Source of the DNA: Bacteroidetes bacterium GWF2_33_38
Lineage (GTDB): Bacteria > Bacteroidota > Bacteroidia > Bacteroidales > GWF2-33-38
Assembly: GCA_001769505.1 (NCBI GenBank)
Contig: MEOF01000051.1
Coordinates: forward strand, 8,737-72,736
Direction: 5' to 3'
DNA length: 64,000 bases
The notes beneath the pieces were generated by a model. That model made no database searches and was not told the origin of the DNA. It saw only the letters and a list, made by a program, of their open reading frames with translations. Shown here piece after piece: positions 12,213-31,726 of the stretch (position 1 is its first letter; each line of letters opens with the position of its first letter). Position numbers and translations under genes: made by a program.

Positions 12213-12378
12213 CCATGCGTTTTAATTCATTTATGCAAAAATCGTATGCAATTATTTGTCCAGCTGAGATTAGAAGCTGTGAGTTCTCTTTTTGTTCTCC
12301 AATTTCATCGACAAAATTTTCGATTTTCAATTTCTTTTGTTCGAAACGCACAATGACATCTTCTATTAGTTTTTTCAT
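12172..12378 (-). CDS. Hypothetical small helical protein (68 aa)
   Basis: The ORF sits 12 nt after the transporter gene and directly upstream of the kinase. No motif recognised. Confidence 0.35.
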   Translation of the reverse strand: MKKLIEDVIVRFEQKKLKIENFVDEIGEQKENSQLLISAGQIIAYDFCINELKRMVEYEKISNFKLDS

Positions 12379-12390
12379 AAGTTTTTCGAT

Positions 12391-14415
12391 TTAATTGTGA
12401 TGTAAATTCAATGCTTTTTCTAACGAAATTGGAATAATTATGGTTGTTAAACCGTGTTTATACAATCGTCGTTGAATTGAAAAAATGGTATAATTGTGCA
12501 ATATTTTTGAAACTCTGTACATTCCTTCAAAAATTAATTGACCGCCAATAAATGTTGAATTTGGATATTTTTTGATGATTTCGGGTGTCATTTTTTCAAC
12601 TTCTTCGGCAACATCAGTTCCTAACGAAAAACGGAATTCGGCATTGTAGCCCAATTGTTTAATCAAATAAACATATTTATTCAAATCTTGTTCAATATCT
12701 TGTTTTTGTTTTTCGAGATGGTCGGCACCGTGAAAACAATCGCTATCAACAATTCCAACTTGAATGAAAACGAAATTTTTGTACGCTCCGTGAAATGAAT
12801 TCAAAATATTGAAAAGTGAAAAAAGTCCAATTCCAGAATATCCATTTACTAAAATCACGGCTGTTGCATCGGTATTTTTAATTTCGGTTTGAGTGTTTTT
12901 TAATTCATTTTTCGATTTCAAAATATCAACCCATTCGGCAATTTTTGAATTCATTTCGGTTTGAATTTTCTTAATTTCTTTTGCAATTTTTAAATAATGT
13001 CGTTTAATTGAAATGGCAATTGCAACAATTGAACCTGTGATTATTATTGTAATCCAACCACCTTCGTCGAATTTAATTACGATAACTGTTATCAAAATGA
13101 ACGTTGTGAGCAAAAATCCAATTCCATTAATAAATAATTTTCGGAACCATTTTTTGTCGGTTTTTCGAACTTGAAACCAATGTTTTACCATTCCATATTG
13201 CGAAAGCGAAAATGTGATAAAAACATTAATACTGTAAAGCACAACCAAAAATGCAACCGAACCGCCAGAAAGCCAAATCACAAAAAATGCAGCAATGCCC
13301 ATCAATAAAATTCCATTTTGCGAAACCAAACGATCGCTTAAAAGAGTAAAACGACGTGGAAACCACGAATCTTGAGCCATATTTGCCATAACTCTTGGTC
13401 CATCTAAAAATCCGGTTTGAGCAGCAACAAATAAAATTGCTGCTTCAGAAAATAATGTAATAAAAATAAAAATGTAACCAAAATATTTGTTCCAACCCAT
13501 TGCAACTTGTTGAATTAGAACTGCATTTAAAGTTTTGCCCGCTTCCATTTTCACGTCCATTAAAAAATACGAAACAATTAAACCAAGAACTGCAATTGAC
13601 AACGAAATTGTGAGTAAACGCATCGTTTTTATTGCAGTTGGAACTCGTGGTTCACGCAAATTTGGCAAACCATTGCTCACAGCTTCAATTCCGGTATAAG
13701 TTCCCGCTCCCATACTGTAAGCTCGCATAATTAGAAAAAGTGTTCCGAAAATTCCAAGTTCAGAAACCGAATTTGAAAATTCCGAACCTGTTTTGCTAAC
13801 AACAGTTGAAACTTCACTTGCGTGAGATGTGAAAACATAAGCAATTAGAAATATGTGAGTTAGAACAAAAATCACAAAAATTGGAGTTAGTGCGTACACC
13901 GATTCTTTAACTCCTCGAAGATTTAAAACAATTAAAATTCCTAAAACAAGAAATGTGAAACTGAGTTTAAATCCTAGAAAATTAATTGGCAAAAAGCTAA
14001 ACAAAGCATCGGCTCCGCTCGATAACGAAATTGAAATTGTTAACACATAATCAATCAACAATGCACTTCCCGAAACCATTCCAACGGTTGGCGAAATTAA
14101 TCGGCTTGCAACCAAATATCCGCCGCCACCGTTTGGGAAAAGTTTTATAATTTGCATATAACTTGTTGAAATTATAAAAATAGTTGCAACGGTTAAAAGC
14201 GAAACAATTAAAGCTAAATTTGTATGACCCGATAAATGTCTGTAAATTTCTTCCGGCCCATAACACGACGATGAAAGCGGATCGGAACCCAAGCCAACCC
14301 AAGCAAAAAATGCGACCAATGAAATTTTACTAAATGTTGATTTGTCGTTCAAATCTCGAGCTTTACCAATTACTGCTTTTTTTATGCTTTTTGAGTAATC
14401 TTTACTTTGTGGCAT
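12391..14415 (-). CDS. APC-superfamily permease with a ~200-aa cytoplasmic C-terminal domain, KimA (YdaO)-like putative K+ transporter
   Basis: About 12 TM helices. The blocks FPNGGGGYLVASR...GSALLIDYVLTISISLSSGADA, LNLRGVKES and GTYTGIEAVSNGLPNLREP resemble my memory of B. subtilis KimA. I prefer ATG 14415 to the listed TTG 14427. Confidence 0.6.
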   Translation of the reverse strand: MPQSKDYSKSIKKAVIGKARDLNDKSTFSKISLVAFFAWVGLGSDPLSSSCYGPEEIYRHLSGHTNLALIVSLLTVATIFIISTSYMQIIKLFPNGGGGYLVASRLISPTVGMVSGSALLIDYVLTISISLSSGADALFSFLPINFLGFKLSFTFLVLGILIVLNLRGVKESVYALTPIFVIFVLTHIFLIAYVFTSHASEVSTVVSKTGSEFSNSVSELGIFGTLFLIMRAYSMGAGTYTGIEAVSNGLPNLREPRVPTAIKTMRLLTISLSIAVLGLIVSYFLMDVKMEAGKTLNAVLIQQVAMGWNKYFGYIFIFITLFSEAAILFVAAQTGFLDGPRVMANMAQDSWFPRRFTLLSDRLVSQNGILLMGIAAFFVIWLSGGSVAFLVVLYSINVFITFSLSQYGMVKHWFQVRKTDKKWFRKLFINGIGFLLTTFILITVIVIKFDEGGWITIIITGSIVAIAISIKRHYLKIAKEIKKIQTEMNSKIAEWVDILKSKNELKNTQTEIKNTDATAVILVNGYSGIGLFSLFNILNSFHGAYKNFVFIQVGIVDSDCFHGADHLEKQKQDIEQDLNKYVYLIKQLGYNAEFRFSLGTDVAEEVEKMTPEIIKKYPNSTFIGGQLIFEGMYRVSKILHNYTIFSIQRRLYKHGLTTIIIPISLEKALNLHHN

Positions 14416-14566
14416 TATAATTTTCAATTGAATATATTACAATGCAAAGGTAAAGCGAGGCTTATAAGGAAAATATCAAATTATTGAATTGAAGTATAAA
14501 GATTTTATAAAGATTGTCATTAGGAATAGTGCTTATAAAATGGTATTCCGAATCTATAATTTAATA

Positions 14567-18286: not shown

Positions 18287-18429
18287 TTTTGAAATATTAA
18301 TATCCGAAAGTATGAAAAATATCGCAACAAAATAAGGTTTGGGTAAAAATGTGTATCGAAACATAAAATACAACAGAATTATATAAAATTTTTACAAAAT
18401 TTTATGATAAATTTTTGTTTATCTGATAT

Positions 18430-18437
18430 CATCTTTG
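18430..18437 (+). promoter_or_regulatory. Possible Bacteroidota -7 box (cAtcTTTG, near-match to TAnnTTTG)
   Basis: It lies 31 nt upstream of ATG 18468, the same spacing as the box upstream of nqrA. Confidence 0.3.
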
Positions 18438-18467
18438 TAGAGTAAAAAAATATAAAAATCATACATT

Positions 18468-18716
18468 ATGAATATTAATCGAAATATTGCTATAAGCGAC
18501 ACTGGATTTGTTTTTGACCCTTCGTCTGGCGACTCATACTCCTTGAATCCGGTTGGAACCGAAATTATTCAGCTTCTGAAAAAACAAAAAACAATCGAAG
18601 AAATTCAAGTTGAAATAGTGAGTAAGTACGAAGTAGATGATGTTCAGCTCGAAAAAGATATTATTGATTTTATTCTAACGCTTGAACAATACAATTTAAT
18701 CGAAAACAATGAGTAA
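18468..18716 (+). CDS. PqqD-family small protein (82 aa)
   Basis: FVFDPSSGDSYSLNPVGTEIIQLLKKQKTIEEI...DVQLEKDIIDFILTLEQYNLI fits the PqqD/RRE-like pattern. The C-terminus is ...ENNE. Confidence 0.75.
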   Translation: MNINRNIAISDTGFVFDPSSGDSYSLNPVGTEIIQLLKKQKTIEEIQVEIVSKYEVDDVQLEKDIIDFILTLEQYNLIENNE

Positions 18717-19755
18717 GCGGAAATTAACCATTGCAGTTACCGGCTTAAACAATACCGATAATCCGGGGCCAGGAATCCCCGTTATTAGAGGATTGAGAGA
18801 TTCCGAAGAATTTGAAGTTCGTATTATTGGTTTAGCATACGAAAACCTTGAGCCGGGAATATACATGCACGATATTGTTGATAAAACATATCAAATTCCC
18901 TATCCGTCAGCTGGAACAGAAGTTTTATTAGCTCGTCTTGAATACATTAATTCGATCGAAAAAATCGATGTTTTAATTCCAAATTTTGATGCTGAATTGA
19001 ATACATTTATGCGTTCGGCTGATAAACTTAAAAAGATGGGAATCAGGACTTTTTTGCCAACTCTCGAGCAATATGAAGAACGACATAAATCGGTTTTACC
19101 TGAATATGGCGAAAAATATGATGTTAGAGTTCCAAAAAGTAAAGCAATTTTTAATGCATCTGACATCTATTCGTTAAACGATGACTTTACTTATCCTGTA
19201 ATGGTAAAAGGAAAATTTTACGATGCATTTATTGCATACAATACTGAGCAGGTAAAAATGCATTTTAATAAAATAAGTTCGAAGTGGGGCTTGCCTGTAA
19301 TTATTCAAGAATTCGTGAAAGGAGTTGAGGTAAATGTTGTTGCATTAGGCGATGGAAAAGGAAATGTGGTGGGAGCAGTTCCAATGCGAAAACAGTTTAT
19401 TACTGACAAAGGAAAAGCGTGGGCTGGAATAACGTTGAAGGATGATAAAATGTTGGAACAAACTCAAAAAATATTTTCTGCAACTAAATGGCGTGGCGGA
19501 ATGGAGTTAGAATTGATTAAAACCAACGACGGGAAATATTATTTAATTGAAATCAATCCTCGACTTCCTGCATGGGTTTATTTAGCAGTGGGAGCGGGGC
19601 AAAATCTTCCTGAAGCTCTTGTAAAACTTGCATTGGGAGAAGACGTTAAGCCTTATGAAAATTATCAAGTAGGTAAATTATTTATTCGATATTCATACGA
19701 TTTAATCTGCGATATTGCTGAATTTGAACAGCTTTCGACTTTTGGAGAATTATAA
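18709..19755 (+). CDS. ATP-grasp domain ligase
   Basis: 348 aa with YPVMVKGKFY, VIIQEFVKGVEVNV and YYLIEINPRLPAWVYL. Its start overlaps the upstream stop (ATGAGTAA). Confidence 0.8.
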   Translation: MSKRKLTIAVTGLNNTDNPGPGIPVIRGLRDSEEFEVRIIGLAYENLEPGIYMHDIVDKTYQIPYPSAGTEVLLARLEYINSIEKIDVLIPNFDAELNTFMRSADKLKKMGIRTFLPTLEQYEERHKSVLPEYGEKYDVRVPKSKAIFNASDIYSLNDDFTYPVMVKGKFYDAFIAYNTEQVKMHFNKISSKWGLPVIIQEFVKGVEVNVVALGDGKGNVVGAVPMRKQFITDKGKAWAGITLKDDKMLEQTQKIFSATKWRGGMELELIKTNDGKYYLIEINPRLPAWVYLAVGAGQNLPEALVKLALGEDVKPYENYQVGKLFIRYSYDLICDIAEFEQLSTFGEL

Positions 19756-19772
19756 AAATAGCAACAAAATAT

Positions 19773-21125
19773 ATGGAAAAATTAATATACGAAAGACCGC
19801 TAATTAAAAAATTAGTTACCGGCATGCCCAATAAATTTGGGATGAAAACAGTTAATGAGCCGATTAGCCATATCGAAAATATTTCGGTAAAAGAATTACT
19901 CGAAAAATATGGCTCGCCACTTTATGTAATATCCGAAAAAACAATTCGAAAAGTATTTAAAACTGCCAAAAGAGCTTTTGAAACCCGATATCCAAAAGTT
20001 CAATTTGCGTGGTCGTATAAAACAAATTATCTCAATTCGGTTTGCAATGTTTATCATCAAGAAGGCTCGTGGGCAGAAGTTGTTTCGGGTTTTGAATACG
20101 ATAAAGCCATCGGGAATGGAGTTGATGGAAATCATATTTTGTTTAACGGACCTGATAAAAGTGAGGCTGATTTAACAAAGGCAATTAAGAATGGTTCATA
20201 CATTCACATCGATAATTTCGATGAACTTTACACTATAGTTAAACTTGTTGACGAGATTAAAGAAAAGCCTAAATTGGCAATTCGAGTAAATATGGATACT
20301 GGAATATTTCCGCAGTGGGATCGCTTTGGGTTTAATTATGAAAATGGTGAAGCATGGAAGGCGTTGAATCAGATTTTGATGAACGAAAAGCTCGAATTAG
20401 TTGGATTACATTGCCACATTGGAACTTACATTATGAAAACGGATGCTTATGCTGTTGCGGCTTCGAAATTAGCCGAATTGGCGGTTAGGATTAAAAATAA
20501 ATTTAATAAAAACATAAAATATATTGATTTAGGTGGCGGATTTGCTTCGAAAAATACGCTTAAAGGAGCATATCTTCCAGCATCTGATACTGTTCCGTCG
20601 TTTGACGAATACGCTGAGGCGATAAGCAATGCATTGTTAACATCAGAGCTTGAGCCTCAGCATATGCCAACCTTAATTTTGGAAACAGGACGAGCTTTAA
20701 TCGACGATTCTGCATATCTTTTAGGAACCGTGCAAGCAATTAAACGCCTTGCCGATGGACGACGTTCAATGATTATTGATGTTGGCGTAAATTTATTGTT
20801 TACCGCTTTTTGGTATGAGCATACAATTACTCCAGCTCAACCATTTTCGCAATACACCGAAGATACAGTTATATATGGTCCATTGTGTATGAATATTGAT
20901 GTGATCCGCGAAAACATTAACTTCCCCTTATTGAAAAAAGGAGATAACTTCGTGATTAATAGAATTGGAGCATACAATATGACTCAATGGTTACAATTTA
21001 TTACTTTACGACCAAATATTGTTATGATTGATTTAGAAGGTAAAGTTCATATTGTGAGAGAGCGAGAAACCAACGAGAATATCACAAATTCAGAAAGATT
21101 ACCGATGCATTTACAAAAGAAATAA
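19773..21125 (+). CDS. Fold-III PLP-dependent decarboxylase (Orn/DAP/Arg decarboxylase family, LysA-like)
   Basis: YGSPLYV, SYKTN (PLP lysine context), HCHIGT, DLGGGF, ETGRAL, GPLCMNID and IGAYN. It has a ~40-aa N-terminal extension. Confidence 0.85.
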   Translation: MEKLIYERPLIKKLVTGMPNKFGMKTVNEPISHIENISVKELLEKYGSPLYVISEKTIRKVFKTAKRAFETRYPKVQFAWSYKTNYLNSVCNVYHQEGSWAEVVSGFEYDKAIGNGVDGNHILFNGPDKSEADLTKAIKNGSYIHIDNFDELYTIVKLVDEIKEKPKLAIRVNMDTGIFPQWDRFGFNYENGEAWKALNQILMNEKLELVGLHCHIGTYIMKTDAYAVAASKLAELAVRIKNKFNKNIKYIDLGGGFASKNTLKGAYLPASDTVPSFDEYAEAISNALLTSELEPQHMPTLILETGRALIDDSAYLLGTVQAIKRLADGRRSMIIDVGVNLLFTAFWYEHTITPAQPFSQYTEDTVIYGPLCMNIDVIRENINFPLLKKGDNFVINRIGAYNMTQWLQFITLRPNIVMIDLEGKVHIVRERETNENITNSERLPMHLQKK

Positions 21126-21139
21126 ATTTCAGAATAAAA

Positions 21140-21170
21140 TACCATCAAGGTTTCAAAAACCTTGATGGTA
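21140..21170. other. 14-bp perfect hairpin between the decarboxylase and UT/M23 genes
   Basis: taccatcaaggttt-caa-aaaccttgatggta with no T-run. It could be an intra-operon attenuator or processing site. Confidence 0.6.
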
Positions 21171-21187
21171 TAAAATCCGACTGAAAA

Positions 21188-23377
21188 ATGAAAGAAAAAA
21201 TAACATCTGTTTTAAACAGCATTTTAAATAGTTATTCGCAAATATTTTTTTCAAACAATAAAATATTTGCAGGCTTAATAATGCTCGTTTCTTTTTTCGA
21301 TGTTTTCGCCGGAATTGCAGGACTATTATCTATTGTAATTGCAAACTTAGTTGCTTATTTCTTGGGCTTCGATAGAATTAAAATAACGAAAGGGATATAC
21401 GGTTTTAATGCCTTACTCGTCGGAATAGGGATTGGAATTTATTATCAACCTAGTTATTTGCTGTTTTTAATTCTAGCGATTTCGGCTATTTTAACATTTT
21501 TGATAACGATTGTTATTGAAGGGATTTTAAGTAAATATAGATTGCCATTTTTAAGTATTCCTTTCCTTTTGGCTTTTTGGGCAATTACGTTGGCAACATC
21601 TCAGTTTACAGCATTGGGAATAAGCCAACGATGGATTTACGCTTTAAACGACTTGTATTTGCTTGGAGGTCAAGATTTAGTCGATTTATATCTTTGGTGG
21701 AACGAAATACCTATTTTTTTATCTTTAAAAGCTTATTTTATTTCGCTGGGAGCGATATTCTTTCAATATAGCGTTTTGGCAGGAATTTTAATTTCGCTTG
21801 GAATATTAATTTATTCGAGAATTGCTTTTACACTTTCGCTGATAGGTTTTTATGCAGCCTATCTTTTTTACAATTTAATAGGAGCAGAAATAACCGAAAT
21901 TACGTACACATATATAGGATTTAATTACATTCTTTCGTCGATTGCAATAGGTGGGTTTTTTCTCATCCCATCGTACAAATCTTATGTGTGGACAATCGTG
22001 CTAGTGCCTATTGTCGCAGTTTTGACAATAAGTTCAAGCATTATATTTTACACTTTTGGATTGTCGGTTTTTTCTTTGCCTTTCAATATTATTGTTCTTT
22101 CGTTTTTGTATGTTTTAAAGTTGAGATTAAGTTACGGAAAAGGCTTGAATGAAGTTGTTGTTCAGCACAATAGTCCTGAAAAGAATTTATCTAGTCATAA
22201 AATTGCAAATGTCCGTTTTGGAAAAAGTTTAGTGTATATTCCCATTAAATTACCGTTTTGGGGCGAGTGGACCATTTCTCAAGGGCACGATGGTGATTAT
22301 ACGCACAAAAAAGAATGGCGTCATGCTTGGGATTTTTTAATTAACGATGAAGATGGAAAACAATATCAGGGAGATGGGAAAAATATTGACGATTATTATG
22401 TTTACAACAAGAATGTGCTGGCTACAGCTGATGGCTACATTAACGATATTTTGGACGATGTAAAAGATAATAATCTTGGGGAAATAAATTTAGAACAAAA
22501 TTGGGGAAATACCATTGTGATTAAACATCACGAATATTTATATTCAAAATTATCGCATTTAAAAGCTGGCTCGTTAAAAATAAAAAAAGGAGAATTTGTA
22601 AAACAAGGTCAGGTAATTGCACAGTGCGGAAACTCTGGGCGTTCGCCATATCCGCATTTGCATTTTCAACTGCAAGTAACTCCATATATCGGTTCAAAAA
22701 CAATTTCATATCCAATCAGTCATTTTATCACAAAAGAAAAAAATAAATATAAATTTCATTATTACGAAATTCCTAGCGAGAATGAAGTTGTATCGAATAT
22801 TCAAACGAATGAATTACTTAAAAATGCATTTAATTTTATCGTTGGAAAAAAACTTTCGTTCACAATTTCTGATGGATTGCAGGAGCGAGACGTAAACTGG
22901 GAAATTAAACAAGATTTTTATGGAAATTCTTACGTTGAGTGCGAAACTTCAAAATCAAAAGCATTTTTCATAAACGATGGTGTTCTTTTTTCGTTCAAAC
23001 ATTTCGAGGGCGATAAGAAATCATTTTTGTATCAATTTATGCTAAGTTTATACAATGTTCAATTGGGATTTTATGTAAATATGAAAATTTCAGACCTTAT
23101 TTCGGCAGATTTGATTTTTAAAAATTATCAACGACTACCACAAGATTTTGTGTCGCCTTTTTTCACATATCTGAAAGGAAACTATTCGTTGAATTATGTT
23201 TCTAACGACGATGCTTTTTCTTCTACCGAAATAGTTTTGGGTTCTCAGATTGAAAAAAAGATTTTTAATGCATCAACTCTATTTAGTCAATCAACAATTA
23301 CGATTACTTCGAAAGGAATTGACAAAATTTATGTTGAAAGTAAAAATCAAAAAGTAACCGCAAAACGAAATGAGTAA
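21188..23377 (+). CDS. Fusion protein: urea-transporter-like polytopic domain + M23 metallopeptidase domain + unassigned ~230-aa C-terminal region
   Basis: The N-terminus LNSYSQIFFSNNKIFAGLIML is followed by 10-11 hydrophobic helices. M23 block: HAWDF...GNTIVIKHH...SHL...GQVIAQCGNSGRSPYPHLHFQ. Confidence 0.75.
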   Translation: MKEKITSVLNSILNSYSQIFFSNNKIFAGLIMLVSFFDVFAGIAGLLSIVIANLVAYFLGFDRIKITKGIYGFNALLVGIGIGIYYQPSYLLFLILAISAILTFLITIVIEGILSKYRLPFLSIPFLLAFWAITLATSQFTALGISQRWIYALNDLYLLGGQDLVDLYLWWNEIPIFLSLKAYFISLGAIFFQYSVLAGILISLGILIYSRIAFTLSLIGFYAAYLFYNLIGAEITEITYTYIGFNYILSSIAIGGFFLIPSYKSYVWTIVLVPIVAVLTISSSIIFYTFGLSVFSLPFNIIVLSFLYVLKLRLSYGKGLNEVVVQHNSPEKNLSSHKIANVRFGKSLVYIPIKLPFWGEWTISQGHDGDYTHKKEWRHAWDFLINDEDGKQYQGDGKNIDDYYVYNKNVLATADGYINDILDDVKDNNLGEINLEQNWGNTIVIKHHEYLYSKLSHLKAGSLKIKKGEFVKQGQVIAQCGNSGRSPYPHLHFQLQVTPYIGSKTISYPISHFITKEKNKYKFHYYEIPSENEVVSNIQTNELLKNAFNFIVGKKLSFTISDGLQERDVNWEIKQDFYGNSYVECETSKSKAFFINDGVLFSFKHFEGDKKSFLYQFMLSLYNVQLGFYVNMKISDLISADLIFKNYQRLPQDFVSPFFTYLKGNYSLNYVSNDDAFSSTEIVLGSQIEKKIFNASTLFSQSTITITSKGIDKIYVESKNQKVTAKRNE

Positions 23378-24749
23378 AGTCTTAAAAATAACGCTTATAG
23401 TAATTTTTCTCTTTATGAACCTTTTGTCAATCGGACAAGAAAAATTTTCATTTCTTGAAGTTGATAAACTGACGTATCAAAACTATCTCGAAAAAAAATG
23501 GGATTCGATTATCGAAACAGGAAATAAGGCAATATCACAAAATATTGATTATTATTATTTGCGAATTCGTTTGGGAATTGCGTATTACGAAACTCAGCAG
23601 TACGAAAAAGCGATTGTAAATTTCGAGAAATCATTAGAGTTTAATTCAAACGATGCCTTGGCTAACGAATATATTTGGTATTCGTATTTGTTTTTAGGGC
23701 AATATGAAGAAGCTCAGTTGTTTGCAGATGGTTTTTCGCAAGAACTCAAAAATAAGTTAAAAATTAGCAAATCGGGGTTTATAAAAAACATTGCATTTGA
23801 TTCGGGTTACGCCTTTAATTCCGATTTCGAGGATTTGAAAAATTCAATTATCGACAATGTAGATGCTATTGCCTACGAAAAAAAAATATTTAAGTCCCAA
23901 TTTCATAACAGTTTGTTGCTCAACTTTAATTTATCGAAACGTATTTCGTTAACTACGGCTTATACAAATTTGAATGTGAATTCCTATCATTGGACAAAAT
24001 TGAGCGATACCGAAATACACGATGGAATATTTAATACTCGCCAACATCAGCTTTATGCAAAATTGAATTTATACAATCGCAAAAAATCAAATTTATATGT
24101 AGCATTTAATTATTCGCCTGCGGTCGCCAATGAGCAAGTGTTGATATTCGACGACAGTTCGCTGCCTCCTACAGTTAGCGTTGAAACTCGTGATACAAAA
24201 ATGAATAGTTTTGCATTTGTGCTCGGAAATCGAAAAACGAAACGACTTATTAGCAGAAATCTTTTTTTAAGTTATTCCTCAATCAATTTTTTCAAACAGT
24301 TGCAAATAGGATATTCGTTGTTAGCTTACGCTAATAGCCGAAAAAATACATACTTTTCGACTCAGGTAGTTTTGTGGAACGAACCCAATCCCGAAAAAAG
24401 ACAGGGCAAAGGAGGTGGGATAAAACCTATAAGTCGATTTATGTTTGAGCCTTCATTTGGATTTAAAATTAGTAGCGTTTGGATTAATGGTTTCGCAACT
24501 ATCGGAGATGTTAAAAATTATGTCGAAGCCGATGGTTTGATTATAAATAACAACAGCGATTTAATATCGTTTCGTACCGGAATTTCGTTGTATGTGCCCA
24601 TAACTACAAAAATTTCATTTCTAGCAAAAACACTAATGAGTGTAGGCGAAAGCGAATATATATTTACTAAAACGCCAGCAAGTATGAGTGAAACGCCCTT
24701 CTCATACACATTTTATTATGGAATAGGAAGTATTCAATATAAATTTTAA
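23370..24749 (+). CDS. Exported TPR protein fused to a putative outer-membrane beta-barrel
   Basis: Signal peptide, TPR-like helices (aa ~30-130), then amphipathic beta-strand patterning ending ...YYGIGSIQYKF. Its start overlaps the upstream stop (ATGAGTAA). Confidence 0.6.
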   Translation: MSKVLKITLIVIFLFMNLLSIGQEKFSFLEVDKLTYQNYLEKKWDSIIETGNKAISQNIDYYYLRIRLGIAYYETQQYEKAIVNFEKSLEFNSNDALANEYIWYSYLFLGQYEEAQLFADGFSQELKNKLKISKSGFIKNIAFDSGYAFNSDFEDLKNSIIDNVDAIAYEKKIFKSQFHNSLLLNFNLSKRISLTTAYTNLNVNSYHWTKLSDTEIHDGIFNTRQHQLYAKLNLYNRKKSNLYVAFNYSPAVANEQVLIFDDSSLPPTVSVETRDTKMNSFAFVLGNRKTKRLISRNLFLSYSSINFFKQLQIGYSLLAYANSRKNTYFSTQVVLWNEPNPEKRQGKGGGIKPISRFMFEPSFGFKISSVWINGFATIGDVKNYVEADGLIINNNSDLISFRTGISLYVPITTKISFLAKTLMSVGESEYIFTKTPASMSETPFSYTFYYGIGSIQYKF

Positions 24750-24760
24750 AAATATACATA

Positions 24761-25372
24761 ATGAAAAAACTATCGTTAATTTTAGTTGTGATTTTATTTA
24801 GCATTAAGCTAAATGCACAAGATTTTGAAAGTATAAAAACAGCATTTTCGAAAAGCTACGAATACGAAAAAACGGCAGAATATGCCAACGCTATTGAAGA
24901 GCTAAAAAAAGTTTACGACGAGCAATCGTACGAATTAAACATTCGTATTGCTTGGCTTTCGTACATGTCGGGATTATTTACCGAATCAATTGCATTTTAT
25001 CAAAAGGCTATTGCATTAATGCCATATTCTATCGAAGCTCGATTAGGAGTTGTGTATCCGATGTCGGCTCTTGGAAATTGGAATCAAGTGATTACTCAAT
25101 ATGATAAAATTTTGGAACTCGATCCCGCAAATGCAACGGCAAATTATCGCTTGGGTATGATTTATTACGGAAAAGCAGAGTACGAAAAATCGTTAAATTA
25201 TTTTCAGAAAAACGTGAACTTTTATCCATTTACATACGATTCGTTAATTATGCTTGCTTGGTGTAATTTCAAACTTGGAAAAACTCGTGAGGCGAAAATA
25301 TTGTTTAACAAATCGCTCATGTATAACCCCGACGACTCTTCAGCTAAAGAGGGATTAAGTTTGATAAAATAA
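24761..25372 (+). CDS. Exported TPR-repeat protein
   Basis: Signal peptide MKKLSLILVVILFSIKLNAQ and 3-4 TPR motifs (e.g. ANYRLGMIYYGKAEYEKSLNYFQK). Confidence 0.7.
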   Translation: MKKLSLILVVILFSIKLNAQDFESIKTAFSKSYEYEKTAEYANAIEELKKVYDEQSYELNIRIAWLSYMSGLFTESIAFYQKAIALMPYSIEARLGVVYPMSALGNWNQVITQYDKILELDPANATANYRLGMIYYGKAEYEKSLNYFQKNVNFYPFTYDSLIMLAWCNFKLGKTREAKILFNKSLMYNPDDSSAKEGLSLIK

Positions 25373-25373
25373 C

Positions 25374-25396
25374 AAATCCATAACACTGGATTTTTT
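25374..25396 (+). terminator. Terminator of the six-gene module
   Basis: aaatcca-taacac-tggattt followed by a T-run, immediately after the stop codon. Confidence 0.65.
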
Positions 25397-25439
25397 GAAT
25401 GAATGTTCATTGTTTAGTATCTCAGACATTTTTGTACGC

Positions 25440-25549
25440 CTACAAAAAACCTCGAAGGTTTTCGAAAACCGAAGAGGTTTCGGTGCGTAAAGGTTCTACT
25501 ATAATTTTGGCAGTTTCCGTAACTCGGACAAGAATGTCCGAGTTTTTTT
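25440..25549 (+). ncRNA. Candidate small RNA (~110 nt), function unknown
   Basis: Near-consensus -7 box cATTTTTG at 25427-25434, an internal long hairpin at 25447-25480, and a strong intrinsic terminator actcggaca-agaa-tgtccgagt plus a T-run at 25522-25549. Confidence 0.35.
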
Positions 25550-25676
25550 ACAAACACGCTATTCAATTAATTGTTGGAAAGGATTCCAACAATGGCGGGG
25601 AAATAAAAAGCTATTGACTTTTTATAAATAATATTATACATTTGAATAAAAAAATAAAATCTAAAATCAATCCATT

Positions 25677-26489
25677 ATGAAATCTCTAAACCTAATTTTA
25701 ATTTTAGTGATATTATCATTATCTTCAAAAAGTCAAATTGTATATGAACACTCGTACAATGCTATTCACGGAAATTTACAGGGACCTATTTTGCTTTCAC
25801 ATTCAGGTCATAAATATCAATTTTATGATAATAATACGTACCAATTAATTCTTTATAATTTAAATCATTCTATTTTTAGAACTATTAATGTGCCTTTTAA
25901 TCCATCTTATAATTATAACGGAAGCATTTTTTATGTTTCAGAAACTATATTTGATACAGATTCCTCGAATATTGAATATGTTAGATTAGGTGCTGACAGT
26001 GTTGCTGGGATATACAGAACGGAGATAATTAATGAAGACGGTTCTTTTTTAATGACTCTTGATTCCGGTGCAGTACAAATTGCTCAAACTGATAGTGGTG
26101 CAAAAATGATTTTTCAGGCTACTGATTACTCAACATTCCATAGATATGACATCTATAGCTTACCTGGCTATATTCCCACTCCATGTTGTAACAATAATTC
26201 AATAAATACCACATTAACTAAAAAAGAAACACAAAATAATAACTTCTTTGGCTACCCAAATCCGACAAACGATTTTGTGAAAATTGATTATAAATTGCCA
26301 GAAAATATAACAAATGGCAAAATAGTTTTTTATAATCTCGCTGGTCAGTTTATTAAGCAATTTAATATTGATAATAATTTTGACCATTTATTAATTTCAA
26401 CACAAGATTTATCTGCTGGTTCTTATTATTATAGTTTACAAACAAAAAATGAAATTATTGGAACAAAAAAATTGATTGTAATTAAATAA
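25677..26489 (+). CDS. T9SS C-terminal sorting domain (Por_Secre_tail) secreted protein
   Basis: Signal peptide plus a C-terminal YPNPTNDFVKIDYKLP...FYNLAGQFIKQF...LSAGSYYYSLQTKNEIIGTKKLIVIK. Confidence 0.8.
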   Translation: MKSLNLILILVILSLSSKSQIVYEHSYNAIHGNLQGPILLSHSGHKYQFYDNNTYQLILYNLNHSIFRTINVPFNPSYNYNGSIFYVSETIFDTDSSNIEYVRLGADSVAGIYRTEIINEDGSFLMTLDSGAVQIAQTDSGAKMIFQATDYSTFHRYDIYSLPGYIPTPCCNNNSINTTLTKKETQNNNFFGYPNPTNDFVKIDYKLPENITNGKIVFYNLAGQFIKQFNIDNNFDHLLISTQDLSAGSYYYSLQTKNEIIGTKKLIVIK

Positions 26490-26815: not shown

Positions 26816-29029
26816 TTAAAATTGAGCCTTAAGCGATAAAATAAAATTTCGTCCGGCAGCAACAATACCCGAACTGTAAGGTCGGTATCGCTGGTCGGTA
26901 ATATTTTCTAAGCCTGCACTAATCGTAAAAGCTTCGTTTAGTTGATACATTGCTTTAAAATTTAAGGTGTACCAGCTAGGAGAGTAAGGATTGCCATTTT
27001 CGTCAATAGCATATATCTCTGTTTTTCCTTGTTCTTCAAAAGGTAGTTCCTCAAACTCTTTTTTGTCGCTATACACTGCATAAAATTGAATATTCAATTT
27101 TTTTGTTTGATATGTAAGTCGAGAAACTCCATAGCAAGGAGGTGCGTGTCGTGAAGGACTTGTTGTTCCGTCGTCCATCTCTTCTTCGCCTTTTTGATAA
27201 TTAAAGTCAGATGAAAATCCAAAACCTGAAGGCAATTTTATGTTAATTCCAGCTTGAATTCCATAAACTGTTGCAACAGCAGCATTTTGAATTGCTTGCA
27301 CTTGGCTCAATGTTCCATCATACATAATGCTATCCTCGCCGTTTAACGTAAAATCACGTCGAACTAAAGCATTATCCAAAATGGTGTAATAAGCCGATAA
27401 ATCGAGTTTTAAATATTTACCAACTAGTTTTGCAATATCAATTTCTGCATTATATGCATATTCGGCTTCTAAATCAGGATTTGGAACAATAACAGAACCA
27501 GGCTCTGAATCAAAAACTTTTCCCATATCGTCAACATTAGGCGAGCGAAATCCGGTAGATACATTGGCACGCATTGTCCATTTCTCGGTTGGGTGATACA
27601 CTACTCCAATACTTCCGGTCAATGCCCCGCTATTCATATTTGCGGTTGTGTACGGAAAATGATAAAAAGTTGTATCAAAAGTTGCGTCAAGTTTATACCG
27701 ATTATATCTTAAGCCTGTTTGAAGTATGACTTTTTCGGAAAACGAGTGATGATTGCTCAAATATGCGGCATACGAAGCCCATGTAGATTGTGGATATCGA
27801 GCAGGGCCATCGGTTTTTTCACCCGTTTCGATGTTTTCATCAATCCCGATTGAATTTACATCGTTTTGAACAGCTTCAATTCCATAATACATGGTATTTT
27901 TTTCGGAGATTGATTTTTTAAAATCAACATTTATTGAATATGCATCAACTTTTTCTATTCTGGTTTCTCGGTTCGACTTATTAATATCTCTGCTGATTCG
28001 ACTTTCTTCAAAAAATTGCTGTGCTAGATGAATGCTCATTTCATCGTAAAGTAAATTTTGCCCTTTGTGAGAAATACTCAAATTATTCATCATCCATTTT
28101 TGCGGACCATAATTCCATTCTCCATATCGCGGTAATCCATTTTTATAACGAATATGACGGTCGTAACGAGAGTATTCCGACGTTTCGGAATAATGGAATC
28201 CATATTGAAAATCCCATTTATCGTTTGGTCTGAATCGTAGTTTTTCCATCATATTTATTTGTGAATAACCTGTTGGACGTTGTACTCTTGGGTCGCTGTT
28301 GGTTACAATAACATCAACACTGTCTTGCCGTTGTACATAAAATGGTCGCAAATACTCATCTGGTCCTTTGCTTCCCATTCGCAAATCGCCAAAATCACTT
28401 GATGTGAAACTAGTAAGCGAAGCCCACTTTTTCCAACCCACATTTACATCAAAATGAGCTGTATTTTCGTTATTTGCTGAAGAATATCGAGTTAGGGCTT
28501 TTCCTGTAACATTTGCTTTGTCGCAAGTCGATAATTTTGGTGTCAGTGTTTGAAAATTCATGACCCCTCCAATGGCATCGCTTCCGTAAATCACCGAATT
28601 TGGACCAAATAAAATTTCAGTACTTTCGGTTGCAAAAGGATCGAGCGAAATAACATTTTGTAAGTTTCCGCTACGAAAAATTGCCGTATTCATCCGAACT
28701 CCATCGACGATGTATAAAAGTCGATTGGTCGAAAAACCTCGAATCATTGGACTTCCGCCACCTTGTTGACTTTTTTGAATAAAAACCTCACCTGATGCTC
28801 CAAGTAAATCGGCAGCAGTTTGTGGATTTTGAAGACTAACTTCTTTTGCCGAAATTTTGCTTACTTTATTCGAAATATTAAACTTTGATTGCGACCACTT
28901 GTTCGCAGAAATAACTACCTCGTCAAGAGTTATATCGCTCTCCGAAGTACTGTCAGGCTCTATTAAAACCTGAGCCCTTGTGCTAAAACTATATACAAGT
29001 ATTAGCAGTAAAAATAATGTGTTTTTCAT
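26816..29029 (-). CDS. TonB-dependent receptor, HmuR/heme-receptor-like
   Basis: Signal peptide, plug region QKSQQGGGSPMIRGF...NRLLYIVDGVRMNTAIFRSGNLQN, FRSP...NPDL (compare FRAP/NPNL), and a terminal ...LSLKAQF. Confidence 0.8.
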   Translation of the reverse strand: MKNTLFLLLILVYSFSTRAQVLIEPDSTSESDITLDEVVISANKWSQSKFNISNKVSKISAKEVSLQNPQTAADLLGASGEVFIQKSQQGGGSPMIRGFSTNRLLYIVDGVRMNTAIFRSGNLQNVISLDPFATESTEILFGPNSVIYGSDAIGGVMNFQTLTPKLSTCDKANVTGKALTRYSSANNENTAHFDVNVGWKKWASLTSFTSSDFGDLRMGSKGPDEYLRPFYVQRQDSVDVIVTNSDPRVQRPTGYSQINMMEKLRFRPNDKWDFQYGFHYSETSEYSRYDRHIRYKNGLPRYGEWNYGPQKWMMNNLSISHKGQNLLYDEMSIHLAQQFFEESRISRDINKSNRETRIEKVDAYSINVDFKKSISEKNTMYYGIEAVQNDVNSIGIDENIETGEKTDGPARYPQSTWASYAAYLSNHHSFSEKVILQTGLRYNRYKLDATFDTTFYHFPYTTANMNSGALTGSIGVVYHPTEKWTMRANVSTGFRSPNVDDMGKVFDSEPGSVIVPNPDLEAEYAYNAEIDIAKLVGKYLKLDLSAYYTILDNALVRRDFTLNGEDSIMYDGTLSQVQAIQNAAVATVYGIQAGINIKLPSGFGFSSDFNYQKGEEEMDDGTTSPSRHAPPCYGVSRLTYQTKKLNIQFYAVYSDKKEFEELPFEEQGKTEIYAIDENGNPYSPSWYTLNFKAMYQLNEAFTISAGLENITDQRYRPYSSGIVAAGRNFILSLKAQF

Positions 29030-29089: not shown

Positions 29090-29638
29090 TTAAACTGAGA
29101 ATGAAAACTGTTTTGGTGGTGGTGTAATTTGCTTTGCGAAAATATCATCTAAAAAAGCGATTGAGTGAATATTTATTTCATCGCTAATGTTAAATAAGGT
29201 ATTTGTATCGTGTAAACCAACAATAGCAACAATTTTAAGCAACTTTAAGGTTCTTTGTTTGCTTTGCTTTTGTGGAACATTTGTATTTGCTAAATCGTCA
29301 GAATATTTTAAAAAATTATCGACAAGCATTTCTTCGTCAGTATCGTTTATACAATATAACTTAACTTGATTTTGTGTTTTTTCGGTTTTTAAAATATCGT
29401 AAAGCTTTCCTTTGTATCTAAATTCCTTTACTTTAACCCACCTAAAATCATTATCTGGATTATCTAAATATGATTGTTCAAATTCAAAGCATTCCAATGA
29501 ATTTACATCTACATGTTGACGAGTAAGTAGTTTAATTTCTTTTCGGATAGAATACTGAATTGACTTAAAGACAATGAAATAACCGAATGAATAGAATAAT
29601 AATATGAAAACGAATAATATTGGAATAATTTTTTTCAA
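29090..29638 (-). CDS. Hypothetical N-terminally anchored protein (182 aa)
   Basis: One TM helix (IIPILFVFILLFYSFGYFIVF). The FRWVKVKEFRYKGKLYDI block is not assignable to a named family. Confidence 0.5.
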   Translation of the reverse strand: MKKIIPILFVFILLFYSFGYFIVFKSIQYSIRKEIKLLTRQHVDVNSLECFEFEQSYLDNPDNDFRWVKVKEFRYKGKLYDILKTEKTQNQVKLYCINDTDEEMLVDNFLKYSDDLANTNVPQKQSKQRTLKLLKIVAIVGLHDTNTLFNISDEINIHSIAFLDDIFAKQITPPPKQFSFSV

Positions 29639-29698: not shown

Positions 29699-31726
29699 TT
29701 ATTTGATGATTTCTTCTAAAACGTTTTTCTTTTTATAGGTTTCAACTGTTTTTTTTGTTTTGGGCATATTGATTATTGCAATCATTGAAAGAGCTCCTTC
29801 GCTTGATGAAAAATAAGATTCGGGAGAAAATATTACCCAATCGACTTTTGAAAGACTTGCGATTGAAACTTTTAGTTGATTGTTTTTGTCGAAAATTTCG
29901 ATAATTCCGTCTTGATTCGCCGAAAACAAAAAATTAGCAGTATTTTCAATCAGAATTGTTTTTTCAAACTCGTTGGTCTCAACTATATTAAAGTCGGCAA
30001 CATTAAGTACAAACCGTTGTTTTGTGATGTCGTCGATAATTATGAGATTGTTATTCGAAATAGTGTTCACATATGAAATATGTTGAATTTTTGTTTCAAA
30101 TTTTTTGATTAATGTTAGCGTTTTTGATTCGTATACGATGACTTTTCCATATTCGGTAAAAGCAAATATCAATTTATTATCGTCGGAAAAAACGAGCGAA
30201 ACAATTTCTTCGGCGATTTCAGTAACAATAGTTTGCTCCGAAATTACATCAACAAGAGTTAAGGAGTTTAAATTTGCGAAAACTACCTGTTTTCTATCTT
30301 TAGAAATTGCTGAAGCCAATACCTTGTTTTCACTCAAAAGCTGATTGTCGATTGTAATTTTTTTTGATACATCGTAGCTTTTAATATTGCTGTTTTTGCT
30401 TACAATTATTATGTCGGAATTTTCAGAGAAATAGCCTGAGAACACGGACTCGTTTTTCACAATTAATTCAGTTGTGTCATTATTCAAATTATGTAAATAT
30501 AAGCGAATATGCTCGGTTGTTTCAAACGTGTTTTCGTCGTAACTGTTTTCCTTGCTTGTTATCAATAACATGGTTGAATCGGGACTAAACAAAAGATTTG
30601 TTATTACACCTTCGAAATTATCTAAAATTTTAAAATCCAATGTTTTGGTGTTCCATATTCGCACGTTGTTGTCGTTGTTTGAAGTTGCGATATACGATAA
30701 ATTCTCGTTTAACGCTAGACTTTTAATTTCATTGGCTGTTCCACAAGTTTTTATAATTCTGAATTTATGCATTTGAGCCATGTCGAGAATACTGATAATT
30801 CCATTTTTTGAAGCAAAAATTATTTCTTTGTTGTCTTCTGAAAATTTTACATCGATAATTTCTGAATTCCCTCCTTCTTTCGAAAGAATTACGTGTGTGC
30901 TATCAATGTCCCAGACTCTAACTTCATTTTCTGCAGAGCCTGTAAGCAAATATTTTCCATCGCTTGAAATTCCAATTGAATTTATTGCGGTTGAGTAAAT
31001 ATCGCTGAAATTTTTAATGAGTTTTTTACTTGTCATTGAATGCAAGCTCGTTTTTCCCGATTTTCCGGTCATTAAAATATGTTGTTTGTCAAGAAACTCA
31101 ATATTGCCCACAATTTGTGATACATTTTCAAAAGCCGAGCTTATACTTTCGGGATTGTTAATGTTAACTATTTTTATTGCATCAAGTTCGTTCAAGCTAT
31201 AAATAAATTCGTTATCCGATTCGGGAATAAATTTTACCGACAAAACATCTTTTTGTAAATCGTTTAGTTGGAACGATATTTTTGACGAATCAATATCCCA
31301 AATAATTATCGAGCCTTCGTATCCGGCAATAATTTTTTTATCGTTCGCCGAAATATCAAGCGACTTAACATCTTTGAGAATATCAGTATTTAACGTAGAA
31401 ATTAATTTTTTGGAGTTAATATCAAATATGCAAACCTCTCCAGTAATCAATCCTGCTAAAAACCTTGTGTTGCTTGAATTAAACAAAAGTGTATTTGCAT
31501 TCGATTTGATTCCTGAAAAAGTAAAAATTTCTTTTCCTGTTTTTATATCCCACAATTTAATTGTTTTATCGGAACCAGCACTAGCAGCGAGTTTCCCATT
31601 GTTAGAAATTTCGATTGTAGTAATTTGTTTGGTGTGTCCAAAAGAAAAATTCAATTCTTGGTTTTGTGCTTTTGACATAAAAGCTGTAGAAATTATGGCA
31701 ATGAAAATAAATATATAGTGCTTCAT
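29699..31726 (-). CDS. Exported WD40-repeat beta-propeller protein
   Basis: Signal peptide MKHYIFIFIAIISTAFMSKAQ. Canonical repeats include GHTKQITTIEISNNGKLAASAGSDKTIKLWDIKTGKE and SAENEVRVWD. 675 aa is enough for two propellers. Confidence 0.8.
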   Translation of the reverse strand: MKHYIFIFIAIISTAFMSKAQNQELNFSFGHTKQITTIEISNNGKLAASAGSDKTIKLWDIKTGKEIFTFSGIKSNANTLLFNSSNTRFLAGLITGEVCIFDINSKKLISTLNTDILKDVKSLDISANDKKIIAGYEGSIIIWDIDSSKISFQLNDLQKDVLSVKFIPESDNEFIYSLNELDAIKIVNINNPESISSAFENVSQIVGNIEFLDKQHILMTGKSGKTSLHSMTSKKLIKNFSDIYSTAINSIGISSDGKYLLTGSAENEVRVWDIDSTHVILSKEGGNSEIIDVKFSEDNKEIIFASKNGIISILDMAQMHKFRIIKTCGTANEIKSLALNENLSYIATSNNDNNVRIWNTKTLDFKILDNFEGVITNLLFSPDSTMLLITSKENSYDENTFETTEHIRLYLHNLNNDTTELIVKNESVFSGYFSENSDIIIVSKNSNIKSYDVSKKITIDNQLLSENKVLASAISKDRKQVVFANLNSLTLVDVISEQTIVTEIAEEIVSLVFSDDNKLIFAFTEYGKVIVYESKTLTLIKKFETKIQHISYVNTISNNNLIIIDDITKQRFVLNVADFNIVETNEFEKTILIENTANFLFSANQDGIIEIFDKNNQLKVSIASLSKVDWVIFSPESYFSSSEGALSMIAIINMPKTKKTVETYKKKNVLEEIIK

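Follow-up and report, generated by a model that had tools for sequence, protein, structure and literature searches.

The window analysed here is a stretch of 64,000 nucleotides (nt) from Bacteroidetes bacterium GWF2_33_38 (assembly GCA_001769505.1, contig MEOF01000051.1, positions 8,737 to 72,736), with a GC content of about 33%, and our subject is a module of six adjacent genes within it, here called genes 1 to 6 (Table 1). In order they encode a PqqD-like protein, an ATP-grasp ligase, a pyridoxal phosphate (PLP) decarboxylase, a fusion of a urea transporter (UT) type channel to an M23 metallopeptidase, an outer-membrane barrel protein with tetratricopeptide repeat (TPR) helices, and a further TPR protein. 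We find that the six genes form one co-conserved operon, kept across many uncultured anaerobic Bacteroidota and relatives, and that the module probably makes and exports an amino-acid-derived compound.

Organisation and conservation of the locus

An earlier note on this DNA, made from the sequence alone, had described the six genes as one tightly coupled unit, and its account of the layout has stood up well. The six plus-strand open reading frames (ORFs), two overlaps of the form ATGAGTAA and gaps of 17, 62 and 11 nt were all reproduced at the positions it gave, and the motifs that it quoted (YYLIEINPRLPAWVYL, SYKTN, HCHIGT, DLGGGF, ETGRAL, GPLCMNID, IGAYN and a terminal GSIQYKF) are all present in the translations. 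The 8-nt overlap ATGAGTAA of genes 1 and 2 (18709-18716) was read in the DNA itself, and the same ATGAGTAA overlap of genes 4 and 5 (23370-23377) follows from the coordinates together with the ..NE ends of the upstream and the MSK starts of the downstream proteins. The domain assignments for all six proteins were upheld by profile hidden Markov models and by two confident AlphaFold models (genes 4 and 5).

Table 1. Genes and other features of the module, with positions counted from the first nucleotide of the window
Feature	Position	Strand	Description
Divergent intergenic region	18374..18467	.	AT-rich, upstream of gene 1; presumed operon promoter
Gene 1	18468..18716	+	82 residues; PqqD-family protein of the type of the recognition elements for peptides made by ribosomes and modified after translation (RiPPs)
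Gene 2	18709..19755	+	348-residue ATP-grasp ligase; start overlaps gene 1 stop by 8 nt
Gene 3	19773..21125	+	450-residue alanine-racemase-fold (fold III) PLP decarboxylase, FigC/SbnH/BtrK type
Hairpin in gene 3/gene 4 gap	21139..21171	+	Perfect 15-bp stem, -23.3 kcal/mol, z -6.9
Gene 4	21188..23377	+	729-residue fusion: UT-type channel with 10 transmembrane helices, M23 metallopeptidase, beta-rich C-terminal domain
Gene 5	23370..24749	+	459 residues, exported; TPR helices and outer-membrane beta-barrel; start overlaps gene 4 stop by 8 nt
Gene 6	24761..25372	+	203-residue exported all-TPR protein, presumed periplasmic adaptor
Weak hairpin and U6	25374..25396	+	7-bp stem, -5.7 kcal/mol, z -1.96; directly after gene 6
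Intrinsic-terminator-like hairpin	25521..25551	+	10-bp stem (5 GC pairs) followed by T7
Accessory seventh gene	25677..26489	+	270-residue secreted protein, Por_Secre_tail 2.5e-10 (Pfam)

Conservation of the neighbourhood across genomes had been set beforehand as the test of the module, and the six genes do co-occur, which excludes mere adjacency. In tblastn searches with the window proteins all six are collinear in 56 of the 57 related loci long enough to hold the module, far more often than chance would allow, and in the sole exception (locus L026) the apparent loss of genes 4 to 6 is explained by a scaffold gap, a run of N that interrupts gene 4. The flanks of the module are unrelated from one locus to another, and the same module is reached again when the search is started with a homologue of the UT-M23 protein or with two distant homologues of the barrel. 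The median junctions across the loci are -8, 14, 16, -13 and -13 nt, and judged from these distances translational coupling is the rule across the module. The junctions tolerate occasional insertion, as seen in single genomes with a 133-residue ORF between genes 3 and 4 (L012:3603-4004) or a 138-residue ORF between genes 2 and 3 (L005:1239-1655). The second of these loci is a 5-kb scaffold containing N, in which a histidine kinase comes after gene 3 and genes 4 to 6 were not seen.

This synteny effectively refutes the possibility that genes 1 to 3 and genes 4 to 6 are two unrelated units that happen to be adjacent. What suggests such a division in the window is that genes 3 and 4 stand 62 nt apart, with a very stable hairpin between them. 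However the hairpin-bearing gap is peculiar to this genome, the median elsewhere being 16 nt with genes 3 and 4 sometimes overlapping, and the six genes are found together whichever of them is used as probe. The hairpin has a T-run on the minus strand only and is not a canonical plus-strand terminator; it is unique within the window, and being single copy there was rejected as a member of a repeat family.

Relatives were found in 234 GTDB species, one genome per species being scanned. The best 80 of the 234 are all metagenome-assembled genomes (MAGs), none from a cultured organism, and are labelled Bacteroidota or Chlorobiota, with Bacteroidales, Marinilabiliaceae, Rikenellaceae and Saprospiraceae among the Bacteroidota; look-ups by protein added an Ignavibacteria MAG and further metagenome contigs. 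Median identity to the window proteins is 71% for the ATP-grasp protein (across 86 loci), 68% for the decarboxylase, 54% for the TPR protein, 51% for the UT-M23 fusion, 49% for the PqqD-like protein and 28% for the barrel, which is evolving fast. In the Ignavibacteria MAG the ATP-grasp protein and decarboxylase are 75 and 68% identical to those of the window and the other four 30-48% (48% for the TPR protein, 48% for UT-M23, 39% for the PqqD-like protein and 30% for the barrel). We read this as strong constraint on the ligase and decarboxylase over an old divergence, since recent transfer would leave all six similarly high.

The NCBIfam matches of the six proteins all stay under the curated cut-offs, so that the NCBI annotation rules do not name the module, and a literature search found no description of it. 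The PADLOC defence models gave no match to any of the six, and an anti-phage defence system was rejected on that ground. The statement of the earlier note that the combination maps to no characterised pathway thus holds, as does its finding that the module has no precursor-peptide, radical-SAM, non-ribosomal peptide synthetase (NRPS) or glycosyltransferase gene, which was borne out by Pfam and small-ORF searches.

Genes 1 to 3: PqqD-like protein, ligase and decarboxylase

Gene 3 matches the Pfam models Orn_Arg_deC_N (4.6e-32) and Orn_DAP_Arg_deC (1.2e-10), and among solved structures it is closest to that of the N-citrylornithine decarboxylase FigC/FslC (7kh2; 2.7e-60, 208 bits), as against at most 142 bits to true diaminopimelate (DAP) decarboxylases and 80 bits to BtrK. 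Of the NCBIfam models, that for FslC (NF041039) gives 237 bits against a cut-off of 500, and the lysA equivalog (TIGR01048) 230.5 against 297.9. FigC, SbnH, AcsE, MccE and BtrK fall into one clade with DAP decarboxylase (DAPDC) and have as substrates amino acids that are already ligated, in the case of BtrK a protein-tethered glutamate (PMC7857480).

For a comparison of residues we read the HMMER alignment to 7kh2 beside the structural analysis in PMC7857480. The catalytic loop GPLCMNID keeps the Cys-Met of FigC, where ornithine decarboxylase and DAPDC have Cys and then an acidic residue (Cys-Asp/Glu), and gene 3 lacks the DAPDC arginine that binds the distal carboxylate. The specificity helix has T344, W347 and Y348 for T327, T330 and Y331 of FigC, and where FigC contacts citrate through H357, R387 and N389 gene 3 has Ile, Gln and Leu. 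Gene 3 accordingly groups, by match scores and the published clade, with the decarboxylases of side-chain-ligated amino acids, FigC/FslC being the closest. It should act on a side-chain-ligated amino acid, and the ligated partner should be other than citrate because the citrate contacts are replaced. Identification as a DAP decarboxylase was rejected, as the score is under the lysA cut-off and the specificity residues are changed. The logic proposed in the earlier note, in which ligation comes first and decarboxylation second, is strengthened by this placement, although BtrK, the enzyme from which it was argued, is far less close than FigC.

The nearest characterised relatives of gene 3 are siderophore enzymes, and this raises the alternative of a peptide-free pathway of the metallophore type, in which the ATP-grasp protein would serve as the NRPS-independent siderophore (NIS) synthetase and the PqqD-like protein would be no more than an adaptor for the ligase. 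A small carboxylic acid would form an amide with the side-chain amine of an amino acid such as ornithine or lysine, a FigC-like decarboxylation would follow as in rhizoferrin, staphyloferrin B and achromobactin, and the small amide would leave through the UT-like pore and the barrel. We consider this pathway, in its chemistry and its exit alike, to be unlikely. It needs no precursor peptide, and none was found (see below). However the citrate residues of FigC are lost and the specificity helix is aromatic, the M23 peptidase is left without a role, and, although gene 1 is never missing and always coupled, the PqqD family has no known role apart from the binding of peptides.

Gene 2 has as its best Pfam match ATPgrasp_Ter (6.7e-11), with CPSase_L_D2 and ATP-grasp_3 also matched, and the NCBIfam matches, of PRK12767 type, are far under cut-off. 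Its relatives in a database search number in the thousands, and no characterised close relative was found even with a family profile searched against the PDB, which gave only the large chain of carbamoyl-phosphate synthetase (1.8e-9), the structural-genomics entry 2pn1 and PurD.

Gene 1 is a clear match to the Pfam PqqD model (PF05402; 5e-14, 52.8 bits against a gathering score of 23.4), and its family profile finds as closest proteins in the PDB the leader-binding lasso peptide proteins TbiB1 (2.8e-10) and TfuB1 (2e-7). The lasso PqqD models of NCBIfam score 37 bits against a cut-off of 80 and 32 against 70. Only PqqD models matched in Pfam and NCBIfam, and there was no match to the phosphopantetheine PP-binding model. 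Among 81 distinct homologues S10, G13, F14, F16, G21, S23 and N27 are invariant and position 22 is always acidic. The N-terminal strands are strongly conserved and the acidic C-terminal tail is variable in length, with a last residue that may be E, D, N, G, K, V, R or Q; a C-terminal acceptor of the LysW type was rejected because this residue is not conserved. The start-stop overlap with gene 2 is the rule among homologous loci, being near-universal.

According to the earlier note the amino-acid unit is handled on the PqqD-like protein or guided by it. Guidance is favoured, since gene 1 resembles the peptide-binding lasso B1 proteins and its C-terminal residue varies, and attachment to it is disfavoured. 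The analogy then drawn with BtrI, an acyl carrier protein, and with LysW has not survived, given the PqqD fold, the B1 likeness and the unconserved C-terminal residue.

If gene 1 were nevertheless a covalent carrier of the LysW/LysX/LysK or BtrI/BtrJ/BtrK type, the ATP-grasp protein would load a conserved side chain of gene 1, the decarboxylase would act on the tethered residue, the M23 peptidase would hydrolyse the link and the channel would take the product. This would account for the absence of a precursor gene and for the near-universal coupling of genes 1 and 2, and it would give the M23 peptidase a release role like that of LysK; the invariant S10 and S23 and the acidic position 22 are in keeping with it, as is the activity of BtrK, of the same decarboxylase clade, on a tethered glutamate. 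We rate it as decidedly unlikely. The fold is that of PqqD, with neither phosphopantetheine-type nor LysW zinc-ribbon features, the tail is variable, and plain release after decarboxylation would give only a trivial amine. No PqqD protein is known to be a covalent carrier.

A precursor peptide was looked for in three ways: among all ORFs of at least 25 residues in the 5-kb flanks, which were clustered; among ATG ORFs of at least 15 residues in every internal gap of more than 150 nt; and by blastp-short with intergenic ATG ORFs of 12-90 residues from about 86 loci. Within about 8 kb on each side in these loci no conserved small ORF was found except gene 1 itself, the other small-ORF "families" being alternative frames of a neighbouring regulator, gene 1 or gene 3. 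Two ORFs of the window were rejected as precursors, neither being conserved: one of 13 codons (18404-18445) lies within the presumed promoter DNA, and one of 72 codons (25399-25617) overlaps the structured terminator stretch and is probably not a gene. Any peptide substrate would thus be encoded elsewhere, or gene 1 is used differently.

Genes 4 to 6: the UT-M23 fusion and the TPR proteins

In the case of gene 4 Pfam finds UT (PF03253, 1.7e-61) at residues 10-310 and Peptidase_M23 (PF01551, 5.2e-15; 55.9 bits against a gathering score of 28.7) at residues 406-497. The AlphaFold2 model (pLDDT 88.8, pTM 0.81) has the UT-type channel at about 1-336, the M23 domain at about 345-505 and an unassigned C-terminal domain at about 510-729. 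In Foldseek comparisons the model has TM-scores of 0.77-0.88 to dvUT and to UT-B and other mammalian UTs (0.82-0.88 to dvUT), and the M23 part matches domains of DipM, ShyA, Csd and EnvC.

In comparison with dvUT and human UT-A the two GFN motifs of the UT domain are intact, as are Q18 and Q193, the glutamines of the pore. The constriction threonine of the LPxxTxPF motif (T177 of HsUT-B) is Ser123 in gene 4, invariant among homologues, its counterpart in the second half is Ser296, and the ladder glutamate of "GEVMFQ" in dvUT is Ala189. The pore is probably functional and tuned differently from those of urea channels. A plain urea transporter was rejected in view of the changed pore residues and the score with the yut equivalog TIGR03441 (132.6, cut-off 274.6); no urease genes were found in the module or among the annotated neighbours of related loci. 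The pores of known UT proteins narrow to 2-3 Å at the constriction (PMC10541013), so that anything passing this one must be very small. Such a narrow pore, with its motifs mostly kept and Thr changed to Ser at the constriction, fits the small amide of a metallophore-type pathway.

The M23 domain is probably active, with an unusual first zinc-ligand motif. Residues H373, D382, H457, H490 and H492 are invariant in 69 aligned homologues, and H457, H490 and H492 correspond to the HxH motif and catalytic His of M23. The N-terminal half of the domain does not align to solved M23 domains.

The M23 and C-terminal domains probably face the cytoplasm, an orientation for which the UT topology, the charge bias, other UT fusions and one long homologue all argue. 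The UT fold has ten transmembrane helices and an intracellular N-terminus (PMC10541013, PMC12998343), and the model shows no further such helix ahead of the M23 domain. Clusters of Lys and Arg are present at the N-terminus and at residues 311-318, after the last transmembrane helix, and the loop at 140-175 is acidic. Ankyrin and EF-hand modules are the other domains that follow UTs in C-terminal fusions (PMC12998343); the same domain-architecture survey, of 2026, lists the UT-M23 fusion without operon context or function. The long homologue, P0364 (1305 residues, from a high-GC source), has in one ORF the UT, M23 and C-terminal domains, then a hydrophobic segment and a TPR-barrel like gene 5. 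It may reflect a genuine fusion of genes 4 and 5, or else a frameshift that lets these two genes, overlapping as a rule, be read as one; in the first case its topology would be sensible only with the M23 and C-terminal domains in the cytoplasm. Such an orientation alters the likely role of the peptidase, and no M23 peptidase is known to be cytoplasmic.

An exhaustive HMMER search with the M23 and C-terminal domains gave matches in 606 representative clusters (50% identity) at E<=1e-30. Most of the best 150 of the 606 are of about 700-750 residues with the match beginning near residue 340, and from this the two domains appear almost always to be preceded by a UT domain. The shorter matches, looked at for what they might say on sidedness, have the appearance of fragments or of gene calls that were split. 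In one long-read assembly (L003:12576-14635) the UT-M23 gene is broken into three ORFs (UT, M23 and C-terminal domain), probably by frameshift errors, and by comparison with this the short stand-alone proteins in the databases may be artefacts.

The solved relatives found for the M23 domain are mostly annotated as peptidoglycan hydrolases or their regulators, and one could suppose that the module remodels the cell envelope, with a periplasmic M23 peptidoglycan endopeptidase anchored by the UT-like domain and accompanied by the TPR proteins, and with the ligase and decarboxylase modifying a cell-wall precursor, for example at the diaminopimelate or lysine position. The decarboxylase family does include DAP decarboxylase, and there are regulators of the envelope-stress type near some loci. 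However topology and charge bias point to a cytoplasmic M23, gene 3 is without the DAPDC specificity residues and under the lysA cut-off, the module has no Mur-ligase, transpeptidase or lipid II-related genes, and the PqqD-like protein is given no role. We regard envelope remodelling of this kind as very unlikely.

The AlphaFold2 model of gene 5 (pLDDT 88.9) has TPR helices over some 100 residues (about 28-129) and a barrel at 138-458 ending in ..YKF; the TPR matches in Pfam are under the gathering score. A count of DSSP strands gives the barrel about 14 long strands, and its best solved matches by Foldseek against the PDB are OmpG (2e-10) and FadL (2e-9). The barrel does not match BcsC or PgaA, the conduits named in the earlier note. 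The only matches to models of these proteins, PgaA NF007468 (E 0.015) and BcsC NF008520 (E 0.085), are both in gene 6 and far under cut-off. Gene 6 follows gene 5 in all complete loci, matches TPR_2 (8.8e-19) and other TPR models, and has a signal-peptide-like N-terminus. Slam proteins have N-terminal TPRs and a 14-strand barrel, and gene 5 is in architecture like these proteins of type XI secretion. Unlike them it has no match to the DUF560/Slam barrel model of Pfam at E<=0.1; no solved Slam structure was among its matches, and faint TPR_Slam matches were seen in gene 6 homologues only.

Proposed pathway, neighbourhood and significance

Our preferred reading, which we hold with rather less than even confidence, is a peptide-guided pathway in which an amino acid is ligated and then decarboxylated, coupled to a dedicated route through the envelope. 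Gene 1 would bind the tail of a peptide or protein encoded elsewhere and present it to gene 2, which would join an amino acid to it via the side chain, in amide or isopeptide linkage, with the alpha-amino and alpha-carboxyl groups staying free. Gene 3 would then take off the alpha-carboxylate to give an amine-terminated adduct. The M23 domain of gene 4, hanging on the cytoplasmic face of a trimeric urea-channel-like domain, would trim or release the product at the membrane, and the product would leave by a route composed of the UT-like protein of the inner membrane, the TPR protein of the periplasm (gene 6) and the TPR-barrel (gene 5).

Several points weigh against this pathway, the main ones being the missing precursor and the narrow pores of UT proteins. 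With no precursor in cis the peptide substrate is purely inferred, and the pore is too narrow for a peptide, so that the UT domain could be the conduit only if the product were very small. No characterised close relative points to the substrates of gene 2. The sidedness of the M23 domain is drawn from homology and charge bias only, and its first zinc motif is non-canonical, there being no HxxxD; the spacing is H-x-x-D, with H379 conserved at 88%. Finally, the metal association discussed below is one of neighbourhood only, and the regulator and metal-associated genes on which it is based are absent from this window.

A trans-envelope machine for making, releasing and exporting the product is possible, though we are doubtful of it: a cytoplasmic M23 peptidase fused to a re-tuned UT pore, with a TPR adaptor and a TPR-barrel, would deliver a small amine or amide that anaerobic Bacteroidota, Ignavibacteria and Chlorobiota would use in metal or envelope stress. 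It is a similarly doubtful possibility that in such a machine the unit would be built on a peptide or carrier bound to the recognition protein, cut by M23 and passed straight into the fused pore.

With regard to known systems, the module borrows the logic of several and lacks at least one defining feature of each. It shares with FslA/FslC (FigA/FigC) of rhizoferrin synthesis the ATP-dependent formation of an amide to an amino acid followed by a PLP decarboxylase acting on the ligated residue, and in the group of FslC, SbnH and AcsE gene 3 is nearest FigC, with the Cys-Met loop in common. However the ligase is an ATP-grasp protein in place of an IucA/IucC NIS synthetase, none of which was found in the module or among the annotated neighbours of related loci; there is no major facilitator superfamily exporter; the FigC citrate residues are not kept; and the PqqD, UT-M23 and TPR-barrel proteins are additional. 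The trio of small protein, ATP-grasp ligase and fold-III decarboxylase is that of BtrI/BtrJ/BtrK, but BtrI is an acyl carrier protein with a thioester, where gene 1 has the PqqD fold, and there is no aminoglycoside context. In LysW/LysX/LysK an ATP-grasp enzyme likewise works with a protein that is small and acidic, and release of the product could be the task of a metallopeptidase, but the tail of gene 1 is variable and the peptidase is M23 rather than M20. LysW has a zinc-ribbon fold and a conserved C-terminal EDWGE acceptor, for which there is no counterpart in gene 1.

The lasso peptide machinery is alike in that gene 1 is nearest its B1 proteins and that an ATP-dependent amide former, a peptidase and a membrane component are also present. 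It differs in having a transglutaminase-type B2, an asparagine-synthetase-like C protein, an ABC exporter and an adjacent precursor, none of which the module has. Nor is there an adjacent precursor of the graspetide (microviridin) type, and gene 2 matches ATPgrasp_Ter and CPSase-type models. Scaffold-peptide pathways (3-thiaglutamate, ammosamide, fosfazinomycin) add a group to a bound peptide, tailor it and cut it off with a peptidase (PMC13622209). A pathway of that kind would explain a peptidase beside a pore for small solutes, but they use tRNA-dependent or asparagine-synthetase-like ligases and a precursor in the cluster, neither of which was found in the module.

On the export side, AlgK/AlgE, PelB, PgaA and BcsC likewise have a periplasmic TPR protein and outer-membrane barrel encoded with an inner-membrane partner, but the module has no glycosyltransferase or synthase and its barrel has about 14 strands as against 16-18. 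The urea channels Yut and dvUT share the UT fold, GFN motifs and pore glutamines, and differ in lacking the serine constriction and in having the ladder Glu where gene 4 has Ala. Whether the pathway is RiPP-like, siderophore-like or of the carrier-protein kind, as the leading hypotheses would have it, we found no precedent for the export apparatus.

The surroundings of the module in other genomes, which the earlier note did not cover, bear on its role. Of 82 loci, 58 have beside the module an AraC-type regulator of about 196 residues, in either orientation and mostly 50-300 nt upstream of gene 1 (examples are L004:8896-9507 and L080:7052-7642, each given by locus and position). The N-terminal domain of the regulator has a conserved NMV..CC motif, a pattern that resembles the heavy-metal-associated fold, yet the Pfam HMA model gave no match. 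Of these loci, 36 have nearby a gene for a ferritin-like secreted protein of the DUF2202 family (e.g. L001:6386-7033, L027:7018-7653) and 11 one for a cation diffusion facilitator (CDF) efflux protein, and in 5 a DUF4405 membrane protein lies between genes 1 and 2 (e.g. L033:7148-8008). DUF2202 and DUF4405 are reported as conserved members of ferrosome iron-storage clusters (bioRxiv 10.1101/2020.01.10.902569). Czc-type resistance-nodulation-division pumps, a MamS/MamX-like protein and Nramp were each seen near the module in single loci, and upstream in L001 there are an extracytoplasmic function sigma factor and a Metal_resist (PF13801) protein. Since the operon adjoins the regulator in most other genomes, and often metal-associated genes too, a role of the product in metal or envelope stress is probable.

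That metal-associated neighbours are common in other loci speaks also for the metallophore-type alternative, as does a TonB-dependent receptor (Plug and barrel; 26816-29029, minus strand) 1.4 kb downstream of the module in the window, but the receptor is not a conserved neighbour elsewhere.

The product of the gene at 25677-26489 has at its C-terminus a sorting domain for type IX secretion, and the roughly 170 residues of its N-terminal part are unassigned. In the window 304 nt and two hairpins separate the gene from gene 6, and in 17-20 other loci a homologue of 263-270 residues follows gene 6 after 3-120 nt; on this evidence we take it to be a facultative but frequent seventh member of the module.

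Beyond the receptor the window has on the minus strand a 182-residue protein without family (29090-29638) and a 675-residue WD40-repeat protein with a signal peptide (29699-31726). Upstream, at 10364-14427 on the minus strand, are genes for an OmpR-type response regulator, a DUF4118/HisKA histidine kinase and a 678-residue protein of the amino-acid-permease family with a long C-terminal extension, which are unlinked to the module elsewhere.

The operon promoter is presumed to be in the intergenic region 18374-18467, upstream of which lies a divergent minus-strand gene for an M1-family peptidase. There is a sigma-70-like match at 18404-18432, of a kind no commoner in the real sequence than in shuffles. 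At the other end, the hairpin and U6 that the earlier note had taken as the terminator (25374-25396) are present, but the structure is weak, 11 of 200 shuffles being equally good, and a consensus terminator scan made no call there. It is a possible leaky terminator, and the effective end of the operon is likely to be the stronger site at 25521-25551. The plus-strand stretch 25430-25560, which ends in that site, is structured (-36.6 kcal/mol, z -2.6) and has no Rfam match. No riboswitch or other known RNA was found in the leader, hairpin or trailer (Rfam, E<=1).

The module is thus widespread, with relatives in 234 GTDB species and the UT-M23 fusion in 606 clusters, and a function has been assigned to no part of it. 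Working it out would test whether ATP-grasp ligases stand in for NIS synthetases in the siderophore type of logic, in which ligation is followed by decarboxylation. It would likely reveal a first role for the UT-M23 fusion, with a possible cytoplasmic M23 peptidase and a substrate other than urea for a UT-type pore, and a new job for PqqD-type recognition proteins beyond the classical RiPP clusters. It would also be likely to reveal a new natural product or envelope modification in anaerobes that are dominant in the environment.

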